Shown: positions 12,153 through 40,394 of the stretch, piece by piece
How positions within the stretch are numbered: position 1 is the first letter of the stretch
Layout: each line of letters begins with the position of its first letter
Source: a virus
Lineage: Duplodnaviria; Caudoviricetes
Direction: 5' to 3' (one strand)
DNA length: 64,000 bases
IMG/VR virus record: IMGVR_UViG_2595698882_000001
Coordinates: 92,649 to 156,648 of that record
The notes under the pieces: model-generated
Databases searched by the model: none
What the model was told of the DNA's origin: nothing
The model's input: the letters and a program-made list of their open reading frames with translations, nothing else
Translations under genes and position numbers: made by a program

Positions 12153-12458
12153 ATGATCGACATGGATGAGAACAAAAATGTCCAAGTGCAAGAGGTAGAG
12201 ATTCCAACAGAAGCTCCTAAAGTGTCTTCTAAGCTAGTTGTTACAACTATCATCTACCTAATTGCGATTGTCAACGCTGCCGCAGCTTTCCTTGGTTTTG
12301 ATTTTAATATTCCAACAAACTACGACTTCATTTATGATGGCGTTTCTCTAGTGTTCTTTGCAGGAAGCTTCTTCCACGCATACTGGAAAAACAATGACAT
12401 CACTAAAAAAGCTCGTATCAAAGCAGAGGTAGCTAAACAAGTTGATCTTAAGAAATAA
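12153..12458 (+). CDS. holin (SPP1-type)
   Basis: two hydrophobic segments then YWKNNDITKKA motif. Confidence 0.8.
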   Translation: MIDMDENKNVQVQEVEIPTEAPKVSSKLVVTTIIYLIAIVNAAAAFLGFDFNIPTNYDFIYDGVSLVFFAGSFFHAYWKNNDITKKARIKAEVAKQVDLKK

Positions 12459-12485
12459 TAACCTTATGGAAGGAGATATTAACTC

Positions 12486-12974
12486 ATGAAAATTTCAGAA
12501 GCAATGGCTCAAGAAACTGTTACTCTTAACCCGGGTGACTACCTTGCAGCTAACACAGACTCAGTAGGGTACCTGCCTACATATAAAGACACAAGCGATC
12601 TACACAGAGGTCAGTACCTCTTCAAAGTAGTAAGCGCAGACTCTGGTCTGGATGTTATCCCAGTTGTAATGGCTGAAGATGGCAAGTCTTTTGTAGAAGT
12701 TCCTGAGCGCCCGATCATTTCTCAGAGAGGTAATGTGATTTCTTACATGACTACTCGTAATGATCCTATCTTTAAAGATGGCTACCGCCCGGCGCATGCA
12801 CACGTAGTAGAAAACATCCCATCTGGTGAAGAAGCACGTAATATTCTTGCCACTTTCATTGCCTTTGTTGGCAGCGAGTACGGTATGGGTGTTAATGACT
12901 TCAACATTGAAGGTCCTGACTACCTGAATACGGGAGCAGCTCCTGAGCCAGAACCAGAAGAACCACAAGCTTAA
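12486..12974 (+). CDS. hypothetical, possibly virion-associated protein
   Basis: AAGGAG RBS, cotranscribed with holin, terminator downstream. Confidence 0.6.
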   Translation: MKISEAMAQETVTLNPGDYLAANTDSVGYLPTYKDTSDLHRGQYLFKVVSADSGLDVIPVVMAEDGKSFVEVPERPIISQRGNVISYMTTRNDPIFKDGYRPAHAHVVENIPSGEEARNILATFIAFVGSEYGMGVNDFNIEGPDYLNTGAAPEPEPEEPQA

Positions 12975-31199: not shown

Positions 31200-33672
31200 A
31201 TGGAAGGTATTTTAAAGAACCTACAGATAGAGCAGAACTCGGCGTTTTGGAATGAGGCAGACAAGGCAATAGTCAAACTAACGGAGTTCCTAGATCGAGA
31301 ACTCCCAGATAGTGCAAAAGAGGAAGTCATCTTAGTCCTCAGAGAGGTATTAGACGCTATTGAGAGTGTGGTAGACGATGCCTATGATGAAGGTGAAAAG
31401 GCAGGATATTCAGAGGGCTATGAGGAAGGCTACGATATCGCCATATATATGAACGAAGACTAACAGACTAATACAACACAAGGAGAACTTAAATGTCACA
31501 TCCAGTAGCAGTAATCATCGCATGCGCTATAGGAATTGTCCTAGTAAGGGTAACGATGGATATTAGAGAAAAAGCAAATAAGAAAAGGCGGCGTTAAGAT
31601 GAAAAAATCGGGATTTTGGTTATCCATGCCAAACTTAGGTAAGTGGCTTATAGCTCTCTATGTCGGGTTAGGGTTCGGACACGTGGTGTGGGAAGACGTG
31701 GTACAATACTCTATAAAAGAACATCCGGGTTCATCACTCCTAGTCTACGTTAGTGCCATAGGTATTGGCATAATGGGAGCGAAGGACATTATCGAAGTAT
31801 ATGCTAAGTCTAAATACCAAGCAGGCAATGAAGAAAGTAACAGGAGAAAAGGAGAAGATTAAATGAAAAAGAACATAAAGGAGGAAGAGTTAAATGCAAA
31901 GAAAAGAGCAGCTAAATTTTATCCGAGATAGTATTGATGCGTTTGAAGGTCCCTTCACCAAGGCTGAGATGGACACGATCATGGAGGAGGACTTCCTCCA
32001 TCTTAGTGATGAAGAACTAGCAGAGCGGACAGCTTGGTACGAGGAGTTATGGTTAAAATAATCAAGGGGAGGGGCTAAATAGTGCCTAAGTTTGAAGTAA
32101 CATACGAGCATGAGATTGTTAGAACATACAAAGTTACAGTAGAGGCGGACTCGATAGAAGACGCACATAACAAAGTTGACTACCTAGAGTTCGATACCAG
32201 CGATGAGGAGCTTGTAGACGAAGAGGGTTTACGAATAAATGTCACTGATATTGAAGAAGTCGAGGAGGGAGAGTAAGTGGCTAAGAAAAAGCAGAACCTC
32301 GCAGACCAGATAAGCGAGTGGGATAAAGTAATCCAGAAACAGTTTGATGACAAACGGGAAAGAGACCAGCTGCTGGAACCCAGTCGACCAGCCATCCCTC
32401 GTATCGTCAATTCAGCACAGGCTTTAGGTAGGATGGCGCACTACATTCAGATGACCTCCGATATGGCACATGAAGGACTTCTTGCCGCAGATAAAGCGCA
32501 AAGGATTATAGACAACCAGATCAAGCATATGACCAATGAGATGACTTACCTCTCCATGTTTTTGAAAAAGGAGGACGAAGAGTAATGGAGGACCTTTCAA
32601 TTGCTTTATTTATGATCTTCTGTACTCCTCTTGGGTGGGCAGGTATCTTCATCTTTGGATTAGCAGCCAGCTTTGTCATTAAAGCGTGGAGAGGGGTTAA
32701 AAAGTGACTAATACCCTAGACAAGCAGCTCATGTTAAAACGACTTCGTTATGTTGCTGAAAAGCTGCGGGAGTATGAATCAAAACATCCCGAGCAAGAAG
32801 CGTACATTTTAGGCGGACTTCAGGTAGTAACTGACCTCGAATACCAGATTAGAAACGGTCTGTACGATGCTGAGGTCGGGAAGGGGCATCTCATAGGCTG
32901 TCAAACAGGTCGGTTCTCCAGCAGCGAGCCTAACCTAAGTGCAGAACCTAAGAGTGATCCTCTTGTTGTAAACGGACATGTGCTTTATACCAAGGAGGAT
33001 TTTAAAGACATGATCGGAGAGGAACTGGAGAGCAGCTATACTGCACACCTTGTCTTGGATGGTGGTCTCGCTATTTGTAAAATCTGTGGGGAAGGGGAAG
33101 CAGGATTAGACAATCCTTGCAAACCGAAGGAGGACAGTGTATGACAGTATACTACACAATGATGGGGTACTTTCCTGTACTAAGAAGAAAGATGGATGCA
33201 GAGTTTAAGCGGGTAGGATTCAAAAACATCAAGGAGAAACGCTGGTTCCTCAACAAAGTCCTCGGTAAAGCGCCTTACTTAAACAGTATGTCTATTGTGG
33301 AGATGGAGAGGATTATCTCCGAGTTACAAAAGTATGAAGATGTGAGTGAGATTGAGGGTAATGCATAATACAAATGATCCTAGAAGCATGTTCAAAGCAG
33401 TTAGACTACCTCCAAAACAAGAATTTCCATGGGAGATCGGCAGTTTAAAAAGGAAAGGTAAGCGGAGACTATCGTGGTCAGAGGAAAACCCAAGATGGGT
33501 TAATGTCGAAGAGTTCTGGGGCATGCCACTTTATTATGGGGTAGACCTAGAGGATTTTGGAACAGACAACTGGAGTTTATACGGTTGTATAGCAGAAGAC
33601 AAGTCTATCTATGACGATCTCGCTGAATACGTTGAAAAGTATAACAAAATGAAATCGAATAAGCAACCCTAA
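31200..33672 (+). other. cluster of small hypothetical CDS (31200-31463, 31599-31862, 32082-32276, 32277-32585, 32704-33144, 33141-33368, 33361-33672 and shorter ones)
   Basis: packed + strand ORFs with RBS. Confidence 0.55.
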
Positions 33673-33705
33673 TACAGAGGACGAGAAATAAGGGCTTATA
33701 CCAGT

Positions 33706-33736
33706 AAAAACAAGGGTTATCCCCTTGTTTTTTTTA
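33706..33736 (+). terminator. terminator insulating the ParM operon
   Basis: AAAAACAAGGG-TTATC-CCCTTGTTTTTTTT. Confidence 0.75.
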
Positions 33737-33746
33737 TTATGTACAG

Positions 33747-33775
33747 ACATAGGATTCCGCATATGCCCATAAAGT
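33747..33775 (+). promoter_or_regulatory. SigE-like promoter of the ParM-FtsK operon
   Basis: ACATA-N16-CATAAAGT versus B. subtilis SigE consensus ATa-N16-18-cATAcanT; no TTGACA. Confidence 0.55.
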
Positions 33776-33830
33776 ATAATCACAAGGGTATTACAAAGTA
33801 TGCGAAGGAATGACAAAGGAGGAGTTAGGT

Positions 33831-34910
33831 ATGACAAGGTATGCGGGTTTTAATGTAAAAGCGTTGGACGATGGGTACGGGGATGTAAAATTCGACAGCA
33901 CAGGTTCTCCTAATCTTATCCCATCATTCGTCACAAGTTTTAAGGAGAAGCCTAAAAAGGACTTTGGGCAAGACAGCAAGCTACGGTATGTAGCCAGTGA
34001 GATTGACGGAGAAAGATATGTAGTAGGAGACTACGCAATGAAGCTGGACCCAAACATCATCTGGGCTGGAGGGGAAAACAAACACGCTGACAAGAGGTTC
34101 CCGGTCTTATTAAAAACTACCCTTGGGTTAATGAGCTCGGGAAGACATGAAGTAATCGACACACTTATGATGAACCTCCCTATCAGATACGACACAGAGG
34201 AAAGACGGCAGCAGCTTACAGAAGTAGCTCAAGGCACTCATACCGTAGCTTTAAGTAGCGATGGGATGAACTTCATTAAAAGAATGGTCACAGTAAACAA
34301 CGTGGAGATTAAGAAGCAGCCGTTCGGTAGCCTGTGTGATGTGATACTTGATGGTAACGGAGACATCATTGATAAGGACACAGCCAAAGGGTTCAACGTC
34401 ATCGTAGATGTAGGTGCCCGGACACTAAACATCCTCACTGTAGACGCCTTAGAGGAACAGACAGAGCTTTCATTACAAACGAACGATGGGATGTACACCG
34501 CATTCAGTCAGGTAGGTTCCTATCTAGAGAAGGAGCTTGACGTGATCATCCCGGACGGTAAGCTTCCGCAGATCATTAGTCAAAAGGAAATCAAGAACAT
34601 GGATATCACACCGCTTATTAATAGCACATACGAGAATCATGCCAACACAATACTAGCTGTACTAGACAAGGTGCTAGTCAACTCATGGGGTTTTGTTACT
34701 TCCGTCATCTTCACAGGCGGAGGAGCCGGGAAAGAGCTGCTGAGACCGTATATTGAAAAGCGCTTCAACAGAGTACCTTCTATCTTCTTGGACCGTTATT
34801 CGAATGTCAGAGGTCTCCGCAAATATGGAATCCGACAATCGAAAAAGAACCCTAAGAAGGTAAATAACATTAAGATTCAGGTGGGTAATCATGAGTACAG
34901 TCCGAAGTAA
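33831..34910 (+). CDS. ParM/StbA-family actin-like ATPase
   Basis: LDDGYGDVK, IVDVGARTLN, FTGGGA, NVRG actin-fold motifs; AGGAGG RBS before ATG 33831. Confidence 0.88.
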   Translation: MTRYAGFNVKALDDGYGDVKFDSTGSPNLIPSFVTSFKEKPKKDFGQDSKLRYVASEIDGERYVVGDYAMKLDPNIIWAGGENKHADKRFPVLLKTTLGLMSSGRHEVIDTLMMNLPIRYDTEERRQQLTEVAQGTHTVALSSDGMNFIKRMVTVNNVEIKKQPFGSLCDVILDGNGDIIDKDTAKGFNVIVDVGARTLNILTVDALEEQTELSLQTNDGMYTAFSQVGSYLEKELDVIIPDGKLPQIISQKEIKNMDITPLINSTYENHANTILAVLDKVLVNSWGFVTSVIFTGGGAGKELLRPYIEKRFNRVPSIFLDRYSNVRGLRKYGIRQSKKNPKKVNNIKIQVGNHEYSPK

Positions 34911-35199
34911 GAAAAACAACAGACGAACACTTTACCTTAGTGACAGGAAGGATAAGGACATTCTGGAGTATATTGAGCCGCTTATGGATGAACGCTATGA
35001 CTTTTCCTTTGTGATCCGGGAGCTGGTTAGAGATGGGATTAAGTATAGAACCTGCCCGACAGCAGCTCCCGCACCACCTACCCAAGTTGTACCACAGGAA
35101 AATGGCATACAAAGTAATCCTCCTGAGCTGTCCAATATCGTTTTGAAGAAGAAAGAGTTGTCCGATGCAGACATCGAGGATAGGCTAGATAGCTTCTAA
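34891..35199 (+). CDS. ParR-like ribbon-helix-helix adaptor
   Basis: RTLYLS strand followed by two helices (FSFVIRELVRDG), flexible acidic tail; overlaps ParM gene. Confidence 0.65.
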   Translation: MSTVRSKKNNRRTLYLSDRKDKDILEYIEPLMDERYDFSFVIRELVRDGIKYRTCPTAAPAPPTQVVPQENGIQSNPPELSNIVLKKKELSDADIEDRLDSF

Positions 35200-35327
35200 T
35201 TTCCCGCTTCTTTCCCAAAAGCCTTATTTCCGGCGGGAAACGGGAAAAATACAGTAAAAAGCCCGAAAATAGTGTGTTTTTAGAGTGTGGGAATTAAGGA
35301 AATAAGGGAAGAAAGAGGTGAGAAAAG

Positions 35328-35888
35328 GTGGTCAAATACACGATCACTTCACGGTTTCACGCTACAGAGCCATTTAGAGATCATGCGCATAACGGGATAG
35401 ACTTTGCTATGCAGGAAGGGACACCTTTGAAAGCAATCGTTGACGGAGCAATTCGAGTAGCGGACTACGGAAACTCCTCAACAGGAAAAACGGTGTTCAT
35501 AGATGCGGCGGATGGAAGAACCTACATCTATGGACACCTGAAGGATTATTCAGTAAGCGATGGTCAGTCGGTCCATGTGGGTGATATTTTAGGTCATTCA
35601 GGTAATACGGGACACAGCACGGGTCCTCATCTCCACTTCGGTATAAAGGAGCACGGAGAATTTATAGACCCGACACCGTACACTTCACTCATTCAGCATA
35701 TGGATCAGTTAAAAGGGGCAGCTCACGCAACCGTTAACTCTGGCTTGGATGCTCTGGAAATGCTAAACCAAGCGCTGAGCCAGTTTACTCAGACGTTATC
35801 GGAGATGACATTGAACTGCATCAGTCTATTACTCGATAGTCATACAGTACATCTAGTATCCGATATAGTTCTCTCATGGTTATGTTGA
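35328..35888 (+). CDS. M23-family peptidoglycan endopeptidase
   Basis: HNGIDF, YGHL, GNTGHSTGPHLHF. Confidence 0.9.
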   Translation: MVKYTITSRFHATEPFRDHAHNGIDFAMQEGTPLKAIVDGAIRVADYGNSSTGKTVFIDAADGRTYIYGHLKDYSVSDGQSVHVGDILGHSGNTGHSTGPHLHFGIKEHGEFIDPTPYTSLIQHMDQLKGAAHATVNSGLDALEMLNQALSQFTQTLSEMTLNCISLLLDSHTVHLVSDIVLSWLC

Positions 35889-35982
35889 CATTCTGCTTAT
35901 CCTGAATTGTGTGAAGAACCAGATGATCGACATTCTGCATTTGCTTCTCATATCTGGTCAGCGGTTTAGAGTCAAAGAGCAC
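35821..35982 (-). CDS. unannotated 53-aa antisense protein
   Basis: AAAGGAGGT RBS 7 nt before GTG; open to TGA; SigG-like promoter upstream. Confidence 0.65.
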   Translation of the reverse strand: MLFDSKPLTRYEKQMQNVDHLVLHTIQDKQNVNITMRELYRILDVLYDYRVID

Positions 35983-36005
35983 GGTCGCTACCTCCTTTCA
36001 AGAGT

Positions 36006-36034
36006 TAGTATGTCCGGTCGAATTTCAATTATAC
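36006..36034 (-). promoter_or_regulatory. SigG/SigF-like forespore promoter
   Basis: GTATA-N17-CATACTA on minus strand; -10 preceded by GGA. Confidence 0.65.
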
Positions 36035-36048
36035 AGGGGGAATTAAAA

Positions 36049-36249
36049 ATGACGAGTATCTTTTTGGCAGTAGGCGGAGTTGCAGTTGTTTGTTCGGCAG
36101 GGACTGGATTAGCAGCAGCTTTGAAGTGGTTCCATAACTACGAGCCAGACGTGGATAAAAAGAAAAAGACCGTTAGAGAAACACGTAACCCGAACAGAAG
36201 CCGACTAGACGATTTGAGTAAAAAAGTACGTACAGATAATCATCTATAA
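36049..36249 (+). CDS. small single-pass membrane protein
   Basis: GGGGG RBS before ATG 36049; N-terminal TM, basic tail. Confidence 0.65.
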   Translation: MTSIFLAVGGVAVVCSAGTGLAAALKWFHNYEPDVDKKKKTVRETRNPNRSRLDDLSKKVRTDNHL

Positions 36250-36262
36250 GGAGGTAACTGAA

Positions 36263-36814
36263 ATGATTATTACAATGTCATCCAGAGAGCTCAATTCAGC
36301 CGTCAGTTACAAGAGTCCGGTACAGCAGTTTAACCTTAAGGAGAAAGTTGAAGACGATGTGCTTTTTATTGCAAACACCTTACAGAAGGAGGTGATCGAG
36401 GGAACGACCGGACAGCAAAGAAAAAAGATCAAGAAGCTGAAGAAATTGCTGAAAGGATTCGTTGTGGTTATGGGGGCGGGAATACAAGCAACACCCAAAG
36501 CCTTTGCCGCAGCACCTCTAACCGGAGCAACCACGACAGTAGCAGCCAATCAGATAACACCAGCTCTGGTAATGAAATGGGGTCTGAATTTAGCTTTAAT
36601 CTCTGTATCGGTGGGCGTAGCATTGTCGATGACTCTTCTGACGCTAGCCGGGATTTACAGGATGATGAGGAAGCGGAAGGAAGCGGAGGAGTGGAGCGTA
36701 GATGTAATCAAGGGTCTCGTGCAGGTTTTAGTTGCGGTCCCGGTCGTATATCTGCTCTTTTATCTGGCGCAAACGGTATTCAAAAGCTTGCCGATTTTAA
36801 GCGGACTCTTTTAA
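36263..36814 (+). CDS. TrbC/VirB2 pilin-like membrane protein
   Basis: internal KAFAA leader-like site; two hydrophobic helices separated by RKRKEAEEW...IKG. Confidence 0.55.
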   Translation: MIITMSSRELNSAVSYKSPVQQFNLKEKVEDDVLFIANTLQKEVIEGTTGQQRKKIKKLKKLLKGFVVVMGAGIQATPKAFAAAPLTGATTTVAANQITPALVMKWGLNLALISVSVGVALSMTLLTLAGIYRMMRKRKEAEEWSVDVIKGLVQVLVAVPVVYLLFYLAQTVFKSLPILSGLF

Positions 36815-37938
36815 AAGCAGCTACACTGGCACCCGTAGCGGTTCTCTCTTCCGCTGTTGTCTCTTCCATGTCGGCAAAAGCCTACGCACAAGCTACAGAT
36901 GTAAAAGCACCCATCGACCTTCTTCTGCTGGGGCGTAACAAAGATCAAAATATCCTGACAGCTATACCTGAAGTAGTGCAGATGTTCAATACAGCGGTCT
37001 CAAAAGTAAATGAGTTCCTTTCAGACCTCCCGCACAATATCGCTGAAATGTCTGTCCATTTAATGAGCTGGCTGTATGAACTCTGTGCTACGCTTATCCT
37101 GAAGACTCCCTTATGGCTTTTTAATAACGAGTGGTTTGAGAATACCACTTATCTGTTTAGTTTGCTGGCTATCGGTATCGTTTCCGTTCTGACCGTCATT
37201 GAATCGGTAAAGCTCATGCTCAGCAGAGGAAAGAAAAAGAGATCAGGTCCGATGGATTTTAAACTGATCATGCAACGGTGGGGGATTGTAGCAGCGGCAA
37301 TGACTGGAATACCTTTCTGCTTTCAGAAAGCCTTCCAAGGACTGAACAAGATATCAGATGTACTCATCTCAATGGGAGCAAGTACGATGGACGCTATCGC
37401 TCTCCCTACTCATATCTCTGTATGGGATGTGTGCTCGCTGGTGTTATTCGATGTAGTTCTTATTTCTACAATTGTTCCGGTGCTGTGGCAGAATGGCAGA
37501 AGATTTTTTGATGTCATGGTTTTGGGAGTAACAGCTCCGCTGGCACTGACAGCTTGGATATTCGATCCGTACAGACATCTGTTTCAGCAGTGGTGGAATA
37601 ACTTGAAACACTTATCTATGGTGCAGGTTTACTATGCGCTCTTCCTACTGATCCTTGGCTGGTTTATATTTGGCGTACCGACACCCAAGGACGTTGTAGG
37701 GATCGTAGTGAAGATGCTTGTAGTAATCGGCGGGTTCACCAGAATGACTTCTCCACCAAGACTCATTGCTAAACATCTGGATAACGGTGGTGGGCTGGAT
37801 GAAGTGTACGGCGGAGATAAAAATGATACCATTAAAAAAGTTCAACGGAACTTTAAAGATACCGCTAGGATTCTCATGAAGCCATCTTCAGCAGCGCAGA
37901 CCGTTTACAAGCGTGTTAAAGACATGAAGAAAAAATAG
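36577..37938 (+). CDS. TrbL/VirB6-like polytopic membrane protein (start uncertain)
   Basis: several TM segments; RRFFDVMVLGVTAPLALTAWIFDP..F..W resembles VirB6 motif. Confidence 0.6.
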   Translation: MGSEFSFNLCIGGRSIVDDSSDASRDLQDDEEAEGSGGVERRCNQGSRAGFSCGPGRISALLSGANGIQKLADFKRTLLKAATLAPVAVLSSAVVSSMSAKAYAQATDVKAPIDLLLLGRNKDQNILTAIPEVVQMFNTAVSKVNEFLSDLPHNIAEMSVHLMSWLYELCATLILKTPLWLFNNEWFENTTYLFSLLAIGIVSVLTVIESVKLMLSRGKKKRSGPMDFKLIMQRWGIVAAAMTGIPFCFQKAFQGLNKISDVLISMGASTMDAIALPTHISVWDVCSLVLFDVVLISTIVPVLWQNGRRFFDVMVLGVTAPLALTAWIFDPYRHLFQQWWNNLKHLSMVQVYYALFLLILGWFIFGVPTPKDVVGIVVKMLVVIGGFTRMTSPPRLIAKHLDNGGGLDEVYGGDKNDTIKKVQRNFKDTARILMKPSSAAQTVYKRVKDMKKK

Positions 37939-37949
37939 GAGGTAAAGCC

Positions 37950-38069
37950 ATGAGCGCAGGCATGCTTATTCTGATTCTGAATACAACGATGCTGCTAACA
38001 AACGCATTAGTTACATCAGTACAAAGCAGCATTATCATGAAGGCGGTACGTGACGATGTTAAAAGTTAA
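37950..38069 (+). CDS. 39-aa hydrophobic peptide, not in ORF track
   Basis: AGGAGGT RBS; MSAGMLILILNTTMLLTNALV... Confidence 0.6.
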   Translation: MSAGMLILILNTTMLLTNALVTSVQSSIIMKAVRDDVKS

Positions 38070-40287
38070 TCCAAGTTATCAGAACATTTCCAATTACTTT
38101 GTGGAGACGCAGGATGTAAGTACAGGGCTTTCCCAGATCATAAAGGAAGTAACAGATTCTCTGTTTGGAGTAGAGATCGTAATGTCTTCAGGGGTGACCA
38201 CTAAGTTTCTCGTCACTCCTCCTCATGTTCGATTAGGGGAAGATGCCTCAAGCTTTCGAGAATCCTCTGTGAGCGGTTTTACGTTCTATGAAGGGTATTT
38301 ATCTCGTCCACACTTTCTACCACTGTACGGGGCTAATAGGGGGCAATTTTTAAGTGATCTGGAGGACATTGCTTTGTACAATGGAGAGCGGTTGTGTATA
38401 CAGCTGCTCTTTAAGAAAAAGTTCCATTGGAAAGAGAAAGCCTTAGACATGTATGCAAGTTACTTAGAAGGGAACGACTACCCGGCATCATTTAGAATTG
38501 GCAGGTTTATTCAGGAGAAGACATTATCTGTACTGAATAGGGTAGCTTCTTTTGAATCAGTAAACGAGTACGTGCCGGAAGTGGAGGAAAAGCTGCTTAG
38601 TGATGGCTTTCAGTTCCAGATGCGGGTAGCGATGCAATCCGAGCGAGAAGACTACTTAAAGAGCAGGGTCACTCAGATACTGCGGACTTACGATTCCCAT
38701 AATTCTATCCGGTTGTATAAACAAAAGCATAAACAAACCGAGACTCAGTATGAAACTTGCATTATGACATCAGAGACAGGAGACCAGATAATAAGTACAA
38801 AAGAACTCTTCTCCTTACTAGGCAGCCAAAACGTAGTAGCTCCCCAGACGGCACCTGTTTCCCTATCCACACCAACAGTTACGAAAGAAATTATTAAGCT
38901 GCTGCCAGAGCATCACAGAGAGGAAGTCCATGCAGATGAAAGCCTCGTTATGAATATCGCTGAGGCGCTGAAACGGGTAGGGTTGATTAAAGCAGCACGA
39001 GTCTACAATGAATCTGTAACAGCAGGTATTCGGTTAACTGTAGTTCAATGCGACATCCCTAAAGGAAAGAACCTGAGTCATATTGTACAGAAGGGTAAGG
39101 ACATACAGGCAGCACTAGGTGTCCCTTCATTAGGAGTTGAGCAAGGAGATACTGCTGACACAGTTAAGTTTGTCATTCCAAATAACCAATCTGCTATCAT
39201 CAGCCTTAGAGAACTGATTGGCACAGCCAACTTCCAAGAGTACAGTAAGAACAATGAACTAGCCTTTGCTGTAGGTGTGGATGAAGTAAACAACCCAATT
39301 TATTTATCGCTGGCTAAACTGGTTCATCTCATGGTAGCGGGAACTACCGGGAGTGGTAAGTCCGTGTTCCTAAATTCGATGATTACTACACTGCTGGTCA
39401 GTTACCCTCCTGATAGGTTACGGATGACTCTGATTGACCCTAAGCAAGTGGAGCTACAGCAGTACAAGGGATTCCCTCATGTAGACGATGTGGTCACAGA
39501 CATGGGAGGTGCTGCACAAGTATTAGAAGACCTTGTTATGGAGATGGAGAAGCGATACAAAACATTTAAAGATAATGATGTGAAGAACATTACTTTGTAC
39601 AATCAGAAGTCAAGTACACCTATGCCTTATACCGTCTGTGTTATAGACGAGTATGCGGACCTCGTGGACACAAATAAGGAAGCCGAAGAGTATATTGCTC
39701 GCTTAGGGCAGAAAGCACGGGCAGCAGGTATTCACCTAGTCATCGCCACTCAGAGACCGAGTTCGAATATTCTTAGCGGCAGGATCAAAGCAAACATACC
39801 GAACGCCATCAGCTTTAACTTAAACAATAATAACAACTATAGGACTGTTTTCGGGGCAGGAATCGGTTACAAGCTTTTAGGGCGTGGGGATGGAGTAATG
39901 AAGATTGAGGGGTACCCTAAAGAGTTCCAACGCTTCCAGAGTGCTATAATTGCCCCGGATGAGGCGGAGGAGGAGAAAGTATACAAAGCTCTTATTGACT
40001 ACTATGGGGGAGCTGAAGTCTCTCCAGAGGCGGAAGAGGTACCGGAACAGCCGGAACAAGAACCTGAAGTGGAGGATGACCACCTCTACCGACTAAAGCA
40101 AGTGATAGCTACTACAGAGGAAACCAGAGTAGAACCACTTAGGAAAGCATTAGGTGTGAAGACTGCAAAGATGAAGGAACTCATGGGTAAATTAGTGGAA
40201 GAGGGCTGGCTTGTTAAGCATAAGGAGCGGTCTAAAGGTTACGAGCTGGTCTGTCCTGAGTCAATTTTATCAGAGTGGAGAGAATAA
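38050..40287 (+). CDS. FtsK/SpoIIIE-family DNA translocase without obvious N-terminal TM domain
   Basis: GTTGSGKS, IDPKQVEL, VIDEYADL, KARAAGIHLVIATQRP, LLGRGD; C-terminal winged-helix-like domain. Confidence 0.92.
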   Translation: MTMLKVNPSYQNISNYFVETQDVSTGLSQIIKEVTDSLFGVEIVMSSGVTTKFLVTPPHVRLGEDASSFRESSVSGFTFYEGYLSRPHFLPLYGANRGQFLSDLEDIALYNGERLCIQLLFKKKFHWKEKALDMYASYLEGNDYPASFRIGRFIQEKTLSVLNRVASFESVNEYVPEVEEKLLSDGFQFQMRVAMQSEREDYLKSRVTQILRTYDSHNSIRLYKQKHKQTETQYETCIMTSETGDQIISTKELFSLLGSQNVVAPQTAPVSLSTPTVTKEIIKLLPEHHREEVHADESLVMNIAEALKRVGLIKAARVYNESVTAGIRLTVVQCDIPKGKNLSHIVQKGKDIQAALGVPSLGVEQGDTADTVKFVIPNNQSAIISLRELIGTANFQEYSKNNELAFAVGVDEVNNPIYLSLAKLVHLMVAGTTGSGKSVFLNSMITTLLVSYPPDRLRMTLIDPKQVELQQYKGFPHVDDVVTDMGGAAQVLEDLVMEMEKRYKTFKDNDVKNITLYNQKSSTPMPYTVCVIDEYADLVDTNKEAEEYIARLGQKARAAGIHLVIATQRPSSNILSGRIKANIPNAISFNLNNNNNYRTVFGAGIGYKLLGRGDGVMKIEGYPKEFQRFQSAIIAPDEAEEEKVYKALIDYYGGAEVSPEAEEVPEQPEQEPEVEDDHLYRLKQVIATTEETRVEPLRKALGVKTAKMKELMGKLVEEGWLVKHKERSKGYELVCPESILSEWRE

Positions 40288-40394
40288 AATTGAATTATTT
40301 TGCATAAAGGGGTTGACTTTCAGTCAGCTCCTTTTTATACTGTGTATAGAAGCTGTAACGAAGACTATAAAATACAGGTTAAGGAGAGATTGCA

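Follow-up and report, generated by a model that had tools for sequence, protein, structure and literature searches.

The stretch of DNA analysed here, called the window, comprises 64,000 nucleotides at the right-hand end of a phage genome of 156,648 bp that carries direct terminal repeats (IMG/VR record IMGVR_UViG_2595698882_000001). Our subject is a gene block within it that combines an actin-type partition system with type IV secretion system (T4SS)-like membrane proteins and an FtsK/SpoIIIE-type DNA motor. An earlier interpretation made from the letters alone (the sequence-only reading) had described, between a terminator at 33706 and the next SigA-type promoter at 40313, a ParM-like actin, a ribbon-helix-helix (RHH) adaptor, an M23 peptidase, a small membrane protein, VirB2-like and VirB6-like proteins, a 39-aa hydrophobic peptide and an FtsK/SpoIIIE ATPase. 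We found all of these parts in that order, together with both bounding signals (Table 1). The block is not confined to one strand, since a conserved 53-aa minus-strand gene interrupts it. Nucleotides 33700-40350 share 94-96% identity with SBSphiJ-type, BSP38 and phiNIT1-type Bacillus subtilis myophages, BSP38 being classified in the Herelleviridae, Bastillevirinae; 53 phage records match this interval, 37 of them with at least 80% query coverage.

Table 1. Features of the proposed partition and translocation block and its borders, in window coordinates
Feature	Position	Strand	Basis or remark
Intrinsic terminator	33706-33732	+	11-pair stem then T-run; closes upstream gene
Promoter region	33743-33780	+	conserved -35-like ACAGACAT and -10-like CATAAAGT; overlapping TATAAT not kept
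Actin-like partition ATPase (Alp/ParM-like), 359 aa	33831-34910	+	Pfam, PHROG and PDB matches
Partition adaptor, 102 aa	34891-35199	+	orthologue alignment, phrog_3536
Centromere-like iteron array	35200-35310		TTTCCC/GGGAAA cluster
M23 metallopeptidase, 186 aa	35328-35888	+	Pfam 1.5e-28, phrog_7767
Antisense gene, 53 aa, overlapping M23 3' end	35821-35982	-	49-55% identity to annotated phage genes
Promoter-like site of antisense gene	36006-36034	-	GTATA-N17-CATACTA
DUF7394 protein, 66 aa	36049-36249	+	Pfam 3.2e-33
VirB2/TrbC-like protein, 183 aa	36263-36814	+	relatives and predicted topology
Candidate slippery T-run (CTT TTT A)	36363-36367	+	at invariant Phe35
VirB6/TrbL-like reading frame	36352-37938	+	annotated body 36868-37938, 356 aa
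39-aa single-helix peptide	37950-38069	+	phrog_4802 6.7e-19; hydropathy
FtsK/SpoIIIE-type motor, 745 aa	38050-40287	+	PF01580 2.8e-47
Next sigma-70-like promoter, outside cassette	40313-40341	+	TTGACT-17-TATACT, 10/12

The first gene of the block encodes the actin-like protein Alp, whose reading frame opens at 33810 and for which a ribosome-binding site (AAGGAGG) favours the start at 33831. Pfam ALP_N (E = 4.2e-20) and MreB-like_C (4.6e-18) were both matched above cut-off, phrog_691 ('partition protein') was matched at 7.2e-101, and comparison with the PDB returned Ta0583 (1.2e-8) and pCBH ParM (1.5e-5), identifying Alp as an actin-fold ATPase of the kind found in type II (ParMRC-like) partition systems. 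The adjoining small gene matches phrog_3536, and in an alignment of eight phage orthologues a DNA-binding-like N-terminal part and an acidic C-terminal tail are conserved, whereas the linker varies; this conservation and the position beside the ATPase gene fit a partition adaptor. The best PDB matches of the adaptor were chance hits to Bcl-2 at E 1.3 and were discarded.

At the end of the adaptor gene begins an array of iterons, with TTTCCC at 35200 and 35211, TTTCCG at 35227, inverted GGGAAA at 35235 and 35242, and degenerate copies beyond. Four copies in 48 bp make it the densest TTTCCC/GGGAAA cluster in the 156.6-kb genome, where the mean is 0.53 per kb and the next-best intervals hold two copies. 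Judged by eye, such arrays stand at or shortly after the adaptor stop in 10 of 10 loci, B. salipaludis having just two to three TTACCC-like copies. Lineages differ in the repeat word, Deep Blue, Sporosarcina and B. salipaludis using TTACCC and Goe8 having five copies of GTTTCCC; co-evolution with a binding protein would give such a pattern, and the predicted, sequence-defined array would represent the iterated-repeat centromere of the system. As in ParMRC and Alp7ARC, an actin-fold ATPase gene is followed by a small adaptor gene with an iteron array. Here, in contrast, the centromere lies downstream of the adaptor gene rather than upstream of the ATPase gene, the system is joined to a translocation unit, and Alp falls far below the cut-off of the NCBIfam ParM equivalog (78 bits against 417). 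The ParM-like system of phage Bp8p-C has been cited, in the available parts of two papers (PMC8026635, PMC11526630), as supporting a plasmid-type unstable lysogeny; Bp8p-T, a close relative of Bp8p-C, carries the VirB6-like gene of the cassette. The interval separating the iterons from the M23 gene (35209-35327) is an insertion hot spot, with an HNH homing endonuclease gene in several close relatives, an HNH gene after the iterons in Goe8, and 766 bases in place of 117 in one metatranscriptome contig.

At the other end of the block, the motor scored 161.5 bits against PF01580 (cut-off 24), establishing an FtsK motor domain. Its closest PDB entry was P. aeruginosa FtsK (2iuu, 2.5e-55), ahead of TcpA of pCW3 (3.8e-17) and also of EssC/EccC, and sequence comparison thereby places it closest to true FtsK, not to the type VII secretion ATPases or TcpA. 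No 19-residue segment in its 745 residues reaches a Kyte-Doolittle value of 1.6 and an N-terminal membrane domain is lacking, in agreement with the FtsK/SpoIIIE ATPase without its own membrane anchor that the sequence-only reading had proposed. With SpoIIIE and FtsK the protein shares the alpha and beta motor domains and a winged-helix-like tail (weak TrmB-type match, 0.073, residues 688-737); it differs from them in having a soluble N-terminal domain of 260 residues (about 1-260) in place of the membrane domain. This N-terminal domain is common to 41 proteins, about half of them without a source name, and the named sources are Bacillus phages plus one Aquibacillus genome. An atlas look-up of the domain returned unnamed clusters (0.90-0.91) and DUF8128 (0.88), which we kept as a lead only. 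Between the motor and the winged-helix tail lies a variable segment of acidic linker (39826-39889), where 62 bases were replaced by 65 others in four of four RNA runs.

Between the partition genes and the motor lie the genes for a putative envelope conduit. The M23 peptidase keeps the HxxxD and HxH metal-binding motifs and has neither a signal peptide nor a membrane helix; the gene is absent from Bastille and Deep Blue. The DUF7394 protein has one N-terminal membrane helix (hydrophobic residues 1-25) and a basic tail, and a literature search on this family found no paper. The VirB2-like protein is predicted to consist of a cytoplasmic head, a leader helix ending AFA-AA and a hydrophobic hairpin of two helices connected by a basic loop, its model placing helices at residues 100-136 and 141-175. 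A gene in the same position on a Niallia plasmid is annotated TrbC/VirB2 and passes Pfam TrbC (31.0 bits, cut-off 27.9); the window protein matches its product by BLASTP at 2e-10 and a B. cereus plasmid homologue at 8e-17. The 39-aa gene ends in an overlap with the start of the FtsK gene.

The VirB6-like protein has about five membrane helices and an AlphaFold model of pLDDT 83.9. Relatives are few, a full HMMER scan against 1.84 billion representatives yielding 121. Pfam TrbL_4 was matched at E<=0.01 by 5 of 51 aligned relatives, no other family having matches from two or more of them, and its cut-off of 27 bits was cleared by two (P0099, 38.8; P0131, 28.0). The five top PDB matches in Foldseek were all R388 TrwI/VirB6 (E 0.024-0.15, probability 0.98-1.00, TM 0.31-0.45). 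Independently of Foldseek, VIA-align placed TrwI (7o3v_F) first at Z 10.6 over 234 residues (rmsd 6.4), followed by Legionella DotA at 8.8 and a next match at 7.0; the aligner warns that below a Z of about 13 helical bundles may share just a common arrangement, so it is profile and fold in concert that carry the VirB6 assignment. On sequence and model together the protein qualifies as a polytopic membrane protein of the VirB6/TrbL type by a remote link, and the fold search that the sequence-only reading had set as a check on the channel genes did yield a T4SS-like fold for it. Like VirB6/TrwI and VirB2/TrbC of R388 (7o3v), the two proteins combine a polytopic fold with a small protein of pilin-type topology; unlike R388, they show only 10-14% identity, VirB4, B8, B9, B10 and B11 are absent, and the host is Gram-positive.

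The absence of VirB4 and of a relaxase, also claimed by the sequence-only reading, was borne out by searches of the whole 156,648-bp genome. PF12846 matched just the FtsK P-loop, at 12.4 bits and below its cut-off of 27.5, and the VirB4 family PF03135 found nothing; for relaxases the three families searched, PF03432, PF02486 and PF13814, gave no match. Within the block itself, genes for VirB4, for a VirB8-type protein and for an adhesin are all lacking.

The VirB6-like gene is present in 158 phage records, 156 of them from Bacillus phages, and on 12 plasmids, all typed non-mobilizable. All seven Bastillevirinae loci inspected keep the same gene order, answering the synteny check that had been proposed, and the FtsK gene adjoins the VirB6-like gene in four of four plasmid contexts inspected. 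A genome scan (one genome per species, two peptide patterns) found seven loci, all in Bacillaceae; each has the VirB2-like, VirB6-like and FtsK genes, five have the M23 gene as well, and an ALP_N actin lies upstream in both of the loci whose neighbours were scanned, followed in one of them (B. salipaludis) by a 102-aa open reading frame. The SPbeta-type phage Goe14 carries the whole cassette, 33668-40284, at 94.9% blastn identity over 6623 nt; the homology starts at 33668, just before the terminator, and the cassette ends at the FtsK stop codon. From this near-identical copy in Goe14 and the diverged copies in Bacillaceae plasmids and genomes, sequence comparison indicates that the cassette moves as a unit, is horizontally mobile and is older than these phages. 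The recurrence of the partition genes with channel and motor genes in phages, prophages and plasmid-like replicons is likewise supported by these comparisons. A plasmid filed under 'Arthrobacter citreus' (NEB 577) was rejected as evidence for a non-sporulating host, since a gene for a small acid-soluble spore protein lies beside the module; that gene, at 12447-12647, suggests a wrong organism name.

The nearest described system is the 'DNA translocation operon', orf200-207, of phage 0305phi8-36 (Pathria 2012, PMC3357382), for which the accessible text of that paper names an mreB-like gene and a virB6 homologue alongside a relaxase of the MobC type and a translocase that has no membrane helices. 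The order is the same in both phages: actin-like orf207, small orf206, orf204, virB6-homologue orf203, a 39-aa gene (orf202) at the same place, and the ATPase gene orf201, whose product, like the FtsK of the window, has no membrane helix. BLASTP linked these counterparts for Alp (1e-13), the adaptor (3e-4), the VirB2-like protein (6.7e-6) and the VirB6-like protein (1e-14). Profiles scored against a set of seven proteins of 0305phi8-36 gave 9.9e-54 (A2), 1.2e-13 (A1), 3.1e-13 (A7) and 7.7e-7 (A5), the adaptor profile matching orf206 at 7.7e-7 in this set. The window thus holds, in synteny with 0305phi8-36, the actin-like gene, the VirB6 homologue and the helix-free translocase. The two differ in that the relaxase-like orf200 has no counterpart in the window; in that the motor of the window is clearly an FtsK of PF01580, orf201 being filed under AAA_10/VirD4 in the portion of PMC3357382 consulted; and in that the window adds the M23 peptidase and the antisense gene. 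Given this gene-by-gene homology, the kind of system is already in print, and the window holds a relaxase-free, FtsK-driven variant. The available account of the 0305phi8-36 operon does not include a VirB2-like identity, iterons, the frame overlap described below or sporulation-type promoters, and among the literature matches listed there was no Bacillus-phage paper with VirB6, TrbL or type IV secretion.

For the VirB6-like gene, the start annotated at 36868 lacks a ribosome-binding site and is preceded by a conserved signal-peptide-like stretch (36796-36888) that has no start codon before it. The VirB6 frame is -1 to the VirB2-like gene and stays open across about 150 of the VirB2-like codons in the window; in 12 of 12 loci it is open through the final 134-169 codons of the gene, while the +1 frame is open for just 2-21 codons. 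When synonymous codons were shuffled, no more than 22 of 2000 trials equalled the observed run at ten loci; the figures were 102 of 2000 for Bobb and 229 of 2000 for Niallia. In the window a T-run follows the opening of the -1 frame by five codons. In 10 of the 12 loci the last -1-frame stop is followed, 1-17 codons on, by at least five T, the other two having TTTT, and by eye T TTT lies in the same phase at a conserved Phe in all 12. Phage 0305phi8-36 shows the same pattern, the orf203 frame being -1 relative to orf204 and free of stops for 150 codons upstream. From these sequence features, the VirB6-like protein is probably made by a programmed -1 shift out of the VirB2-like gene, or by other dual coding, and the conserved overlap would then be a new instance in which programmed frameshifting fixes the proportion of two membrane subunits. 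No insertion or deletion in the T-run was seen among the rows listed from the contig table; contigs drop rare variants, so transcriptional slippage is possible as well. The leaders differ in their ends: those of Bastille-type VirB6-like proteins end AYA or ALA, like signal-peptidase I sites, and the start-less leader of the 0305phi8-36 homologue ends LSGC, which resembles a lipoprotein box.

We consider it moderately probable that the block 33668-40287 is a self-contained mobile cassette serving the inheritance of a large episome and DNA translocation, its destination left open. From the identities, homologies, synteny, iterons and frame conservation described above we infer that the physical interactions and the movement of DNA would run as follows. 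The adaptor would bind the iterons and couple phage DNA to Alp filaments, which would move it towards the pole or a membrane site. There the DUF7394, VirB2/TrbC-like and VirB6/TrbL-like proteins and the 39-aa peptide may form a T4SS-derived conduit free of relaxase and VirB4, and the M23 peptidase may open the wall. The FtsK-type protein, presumably a hexameric double-stranded DNA (dsDNA) motor, lacks an anchor of its own and would therefore have to dock on the membrane proteins of the cassette, from where it would pump the element's dsDNA at or through the septal membrane. An episomal genome, carrier-state or plasmid-like, would thereby be kept at division or sporulation, and the DNA might be delivered to the forespore, the sister cell or another cell. 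Much of the dsDNA positioning and translocation machine that the sequence-only reading had envisaged survives in this account, namely a coherent cassette of T4SS-type membrane parts with an FtsK motor, though the antisense gene interrupts the unit.

Several results weigh against this account. VirB4, the only T4SS protein that is ubiquitous, is missing from the genome. The adaptor belongs to no Pfam family and has no PDB match at E<=1 by profile, so that of the RHH adaptor first proposed the small gene beside the ATPase gene is confirmed and the RHH fold is putative. For the VirB2-like protein, the 25 families listed for 28 aligned homologues (window included) do not include TrbC, the model is weak (pLDDT 60) and found no PDB match by Foldseek, and the profile search of the PDB was also empty. 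Neither this protein nor the VirB6-like one reaches a Pfam T4SS model in the window; the first label is carried by its syntenic homologue that passes TrbC, the second by the TrbL_4 matches of relatives and by two fold searches that give TrwI, with the aligner's caution on helical bundles. Finally, deletion of the 0305phi8-36 operon caused no laboratory growth defect in what is available of PMC3357382, so any role of the cassette would be conditional.

In one alternative, that of the sequence-only reading, the cassette is a sporulation-specific machine which host SigE turns on in the mother cell and which drives the phage genome through the polar septum, so that the forespore becomes a virospore. 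Upstream of the alp gene, ACATA (33747-33751) is followed after 16 nt by CATAAAGT (33768-33775) with no TTGACA, just as the sequence-only reading had it when it assigned a SigE-like promoter; a perfect TATAAT (33775-33780), absent from that reading, overlaps the -10-like CATAAAGT. By eye, ACAGACAT (33743-33750), 17 nt and (C/A)ATAnnnT are kept in six of eight phage loci (the window, BSP38, Goe3, 000TH009, Goe8 and Bastille), with a diverged spacer; Deep Blue keeps the -10-like part alone, and Bobb has an HNH gene inserted upstream. The elements chosen for the SigE-like promoter are therefore the conserved ones. The overlapping TATAAT is not conserved, reading TAGAAT in BSP38 and Goe14 and TAGAAC in Goe3, and was rejected as a conserved SigA -10, though a function in this particular phage is possible. 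We also rejected AGGATT as a SigH-type element, for its wrong spacing and the loss of the word in Goe3.

A second promoter-like site, GTATA-N17-CATACTA (36034-36006), precedes the antisense gene in seven of seven phage loci (by eye) and overlaps the ribosome-binding-site region of the DUF7394 gene; with one mismatch allowed it gives two sites, against 2.0 in shuffles. The 53-aa protein belongs to no Pfam family, its 49-55% identity is to annotated minus-strand genes of Bastille and Goe8, and the gene is annotated also in Deep Blue and Bastille, both without M23. Plasmid and chromosomal versions of the cassette have a plus-strand gene of the Cro/C1 helix-turn-helix type at this position.

The conserved blocks before the alp gene, with a CATA-type -10 as in mother-cell promoters, have a putative likeness to the SigE consensus, and the antisense site has one to the forespore SigG/SigF consensus; the two sites together would give compartment-specific control. 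Each exact motif occurs once in the phage genome, and both were rejected as a general promoter class of the phage. All hosts and records found are Bacillaceae spore-formers or their phages (156 of 158 phage records, 12 plasmids, 7 genome loci). The phages also carry SigF/G-like sigma factors, which are candidates for using the cassette promoters (for background, Schwartz 2022): BSP38 has one annotated RNA polymerase sigma factor gene about 6.8 kb upstream, and Deep Blue (426-1963) has two sigma-B/F/G-subfamily genes, two small genes upstream of its ParM-like gene. On the other side, the conserved -35 block (GTACAGACAT) is longer than, and unlike, a SigE -35, and the restriction to spore-formers may reflect phylogeny only, the genome search having used two peptide patterns. 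Virospores of SPO1 are reported, in the part of PMC12991052 available, for a phage without any PF01580 protein; our search of SPO1 with PF01580 gave no match with positive controls found, and the VirB6-family profile, run without a positive control and hence uninformative, gave none either. The cassette resides also in a temperate phage of the SPbeta type, whose entry into the spore takes place as an integrated prophage, and the deletion in 0305phi8-36 (PMC3357382, as available) had no laboratory phenotype. The count of the host SRS word in the genome (8 on the plus strand, 5 on the minus strand) is uninformative on whether the motor has a gamma domain that reads polar DNA words, and our literature search found no paper on SpoIIIE with phage forespore entrapment. 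We regard delivery to the forespore as a tentative possibility, on balance doubtful.

A purely intracellular role, in which a septum-held FtsK clears or resolves large episomal or concatemeric DNA in the manner of host FtsK/SftA and the T4SS-like proteins are anchors with no channel, seems to us unlikely. The closeness of the motor to chromosomal FtsK, a weak winged-helix tail where FtsK has its gamma domain, the link to partition on large replicons (120-364 kb), which fits segregation housekeeping, and the XerS recombinase gene that the Niallia plasmid carries about 7.5 kb away from the module all speak for it. An anchor would need less, however, than a wall peptidase together with pilin-like and VirB6-like proteins, and host SpoIIIE and SftA already clear septa.

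Minimal conjugation machines are a further comparison. According to the available text of PMC13492992, those of pELF2 and Streptomyces consist of an FtsK-type motor and membrane proteins; Streptomyces TraB, TraC/TraD/TraG of pELF2 and TcpA/TcpH of pCW3 resemble the cassette in having an FtsK-family motor, sometimes helix-free, with few membrane proteins and no classical relaxase. The cassette differs from them in lacking a second ATPase, in residing in lytic phages and in being joined to a partition system; TraG of pELF2, as presented in that text, is only an analogue, whereas the window protein is by profile and fold a real VirB6/TrbL relative. Export of the dsDNA genome to a neighbouring cell without a relaxase, in the manner of Streptomyces TraB or pELF2, could draw on VirB2-like and VirB6-like parts and a wall hydrolase as the needs of an envelope-crossing conduit, on the precedent of a helix-free FtsK-family motor anchored by partner proteins (PMC13492992, available text), on an FtsK-like gene of pBtic360 taken as a hint of self-transfer in the accessible part of PMC6199540, and on the conjugation-type unit that Pathria 2012 (PMC3357382, same portion) saw in the homologous operon; it is nevertheless improbable, with all 12 plasmids typed non-mobilizable (a typing that relies on relaxases), a block that lacks genes for VirB4, a VirB8-type protein and an adhesin, a partition half without evident mating role and a narrow family host range unlike that of conjugation systems.

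Returning to the mobile cassette for episome inheritance and translocation, one may ask how it would be controlled. A scheme in which direction and dosage are set by a mother-cell-type promoter for the machine, a forespore-type promoter for the antisense gene and a programmed -1 frameshift for the VirB6-like protein is conceivable, and we hold it with low confidence. Few molecular handles exist on the way in which unintegrated phage genomes or big low-copy plasmids enter spores or persist in the carrier state, and a cassette found in 156 Bacillus phage records, an SPbeta-type prophage and Bacillus cereus-group plasmids would offer one that is amenable in laboratory B. subtilis phages. Passage of dsDNA across the septum by this route, if it takes place, would be a third in Firmicutes beside SpoIIIE and classical conjugation, and would show T4SS components acting together with an FtsK motor in the absence of VirB4.

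Contigs from public RNA libraries covered the block in four of four runs examined out of 19 listed (X1 and X4 from one study, X2 and X6 from another); such contigs carry no information on strand, transcript ends or levels, and their depths, which vary along the block, are not usable to rank genes. Two contigs of one study (X1 and X4) extend from 33787/33789 to 40284, with flanks uncovered and loose ends at both sides. The loose end after 40284 resembles the sequence 3' of the cassette in Goe14, which points to a strain difference, and with loose ends on both sides in a single study the contig edges were rejected as a transcript start or as silence of the flanks. Within the antisense gene (35887-35945) we also noted a 17-nt direct repeat (GACATTCTGC...), its copies 42 nt apart, and at about 35886-35891 a perfect TTGACA without a good -10; from its sequence, this region is a candidate operator, or else a candidate internal promoter from which the membrane genes might be expressed.

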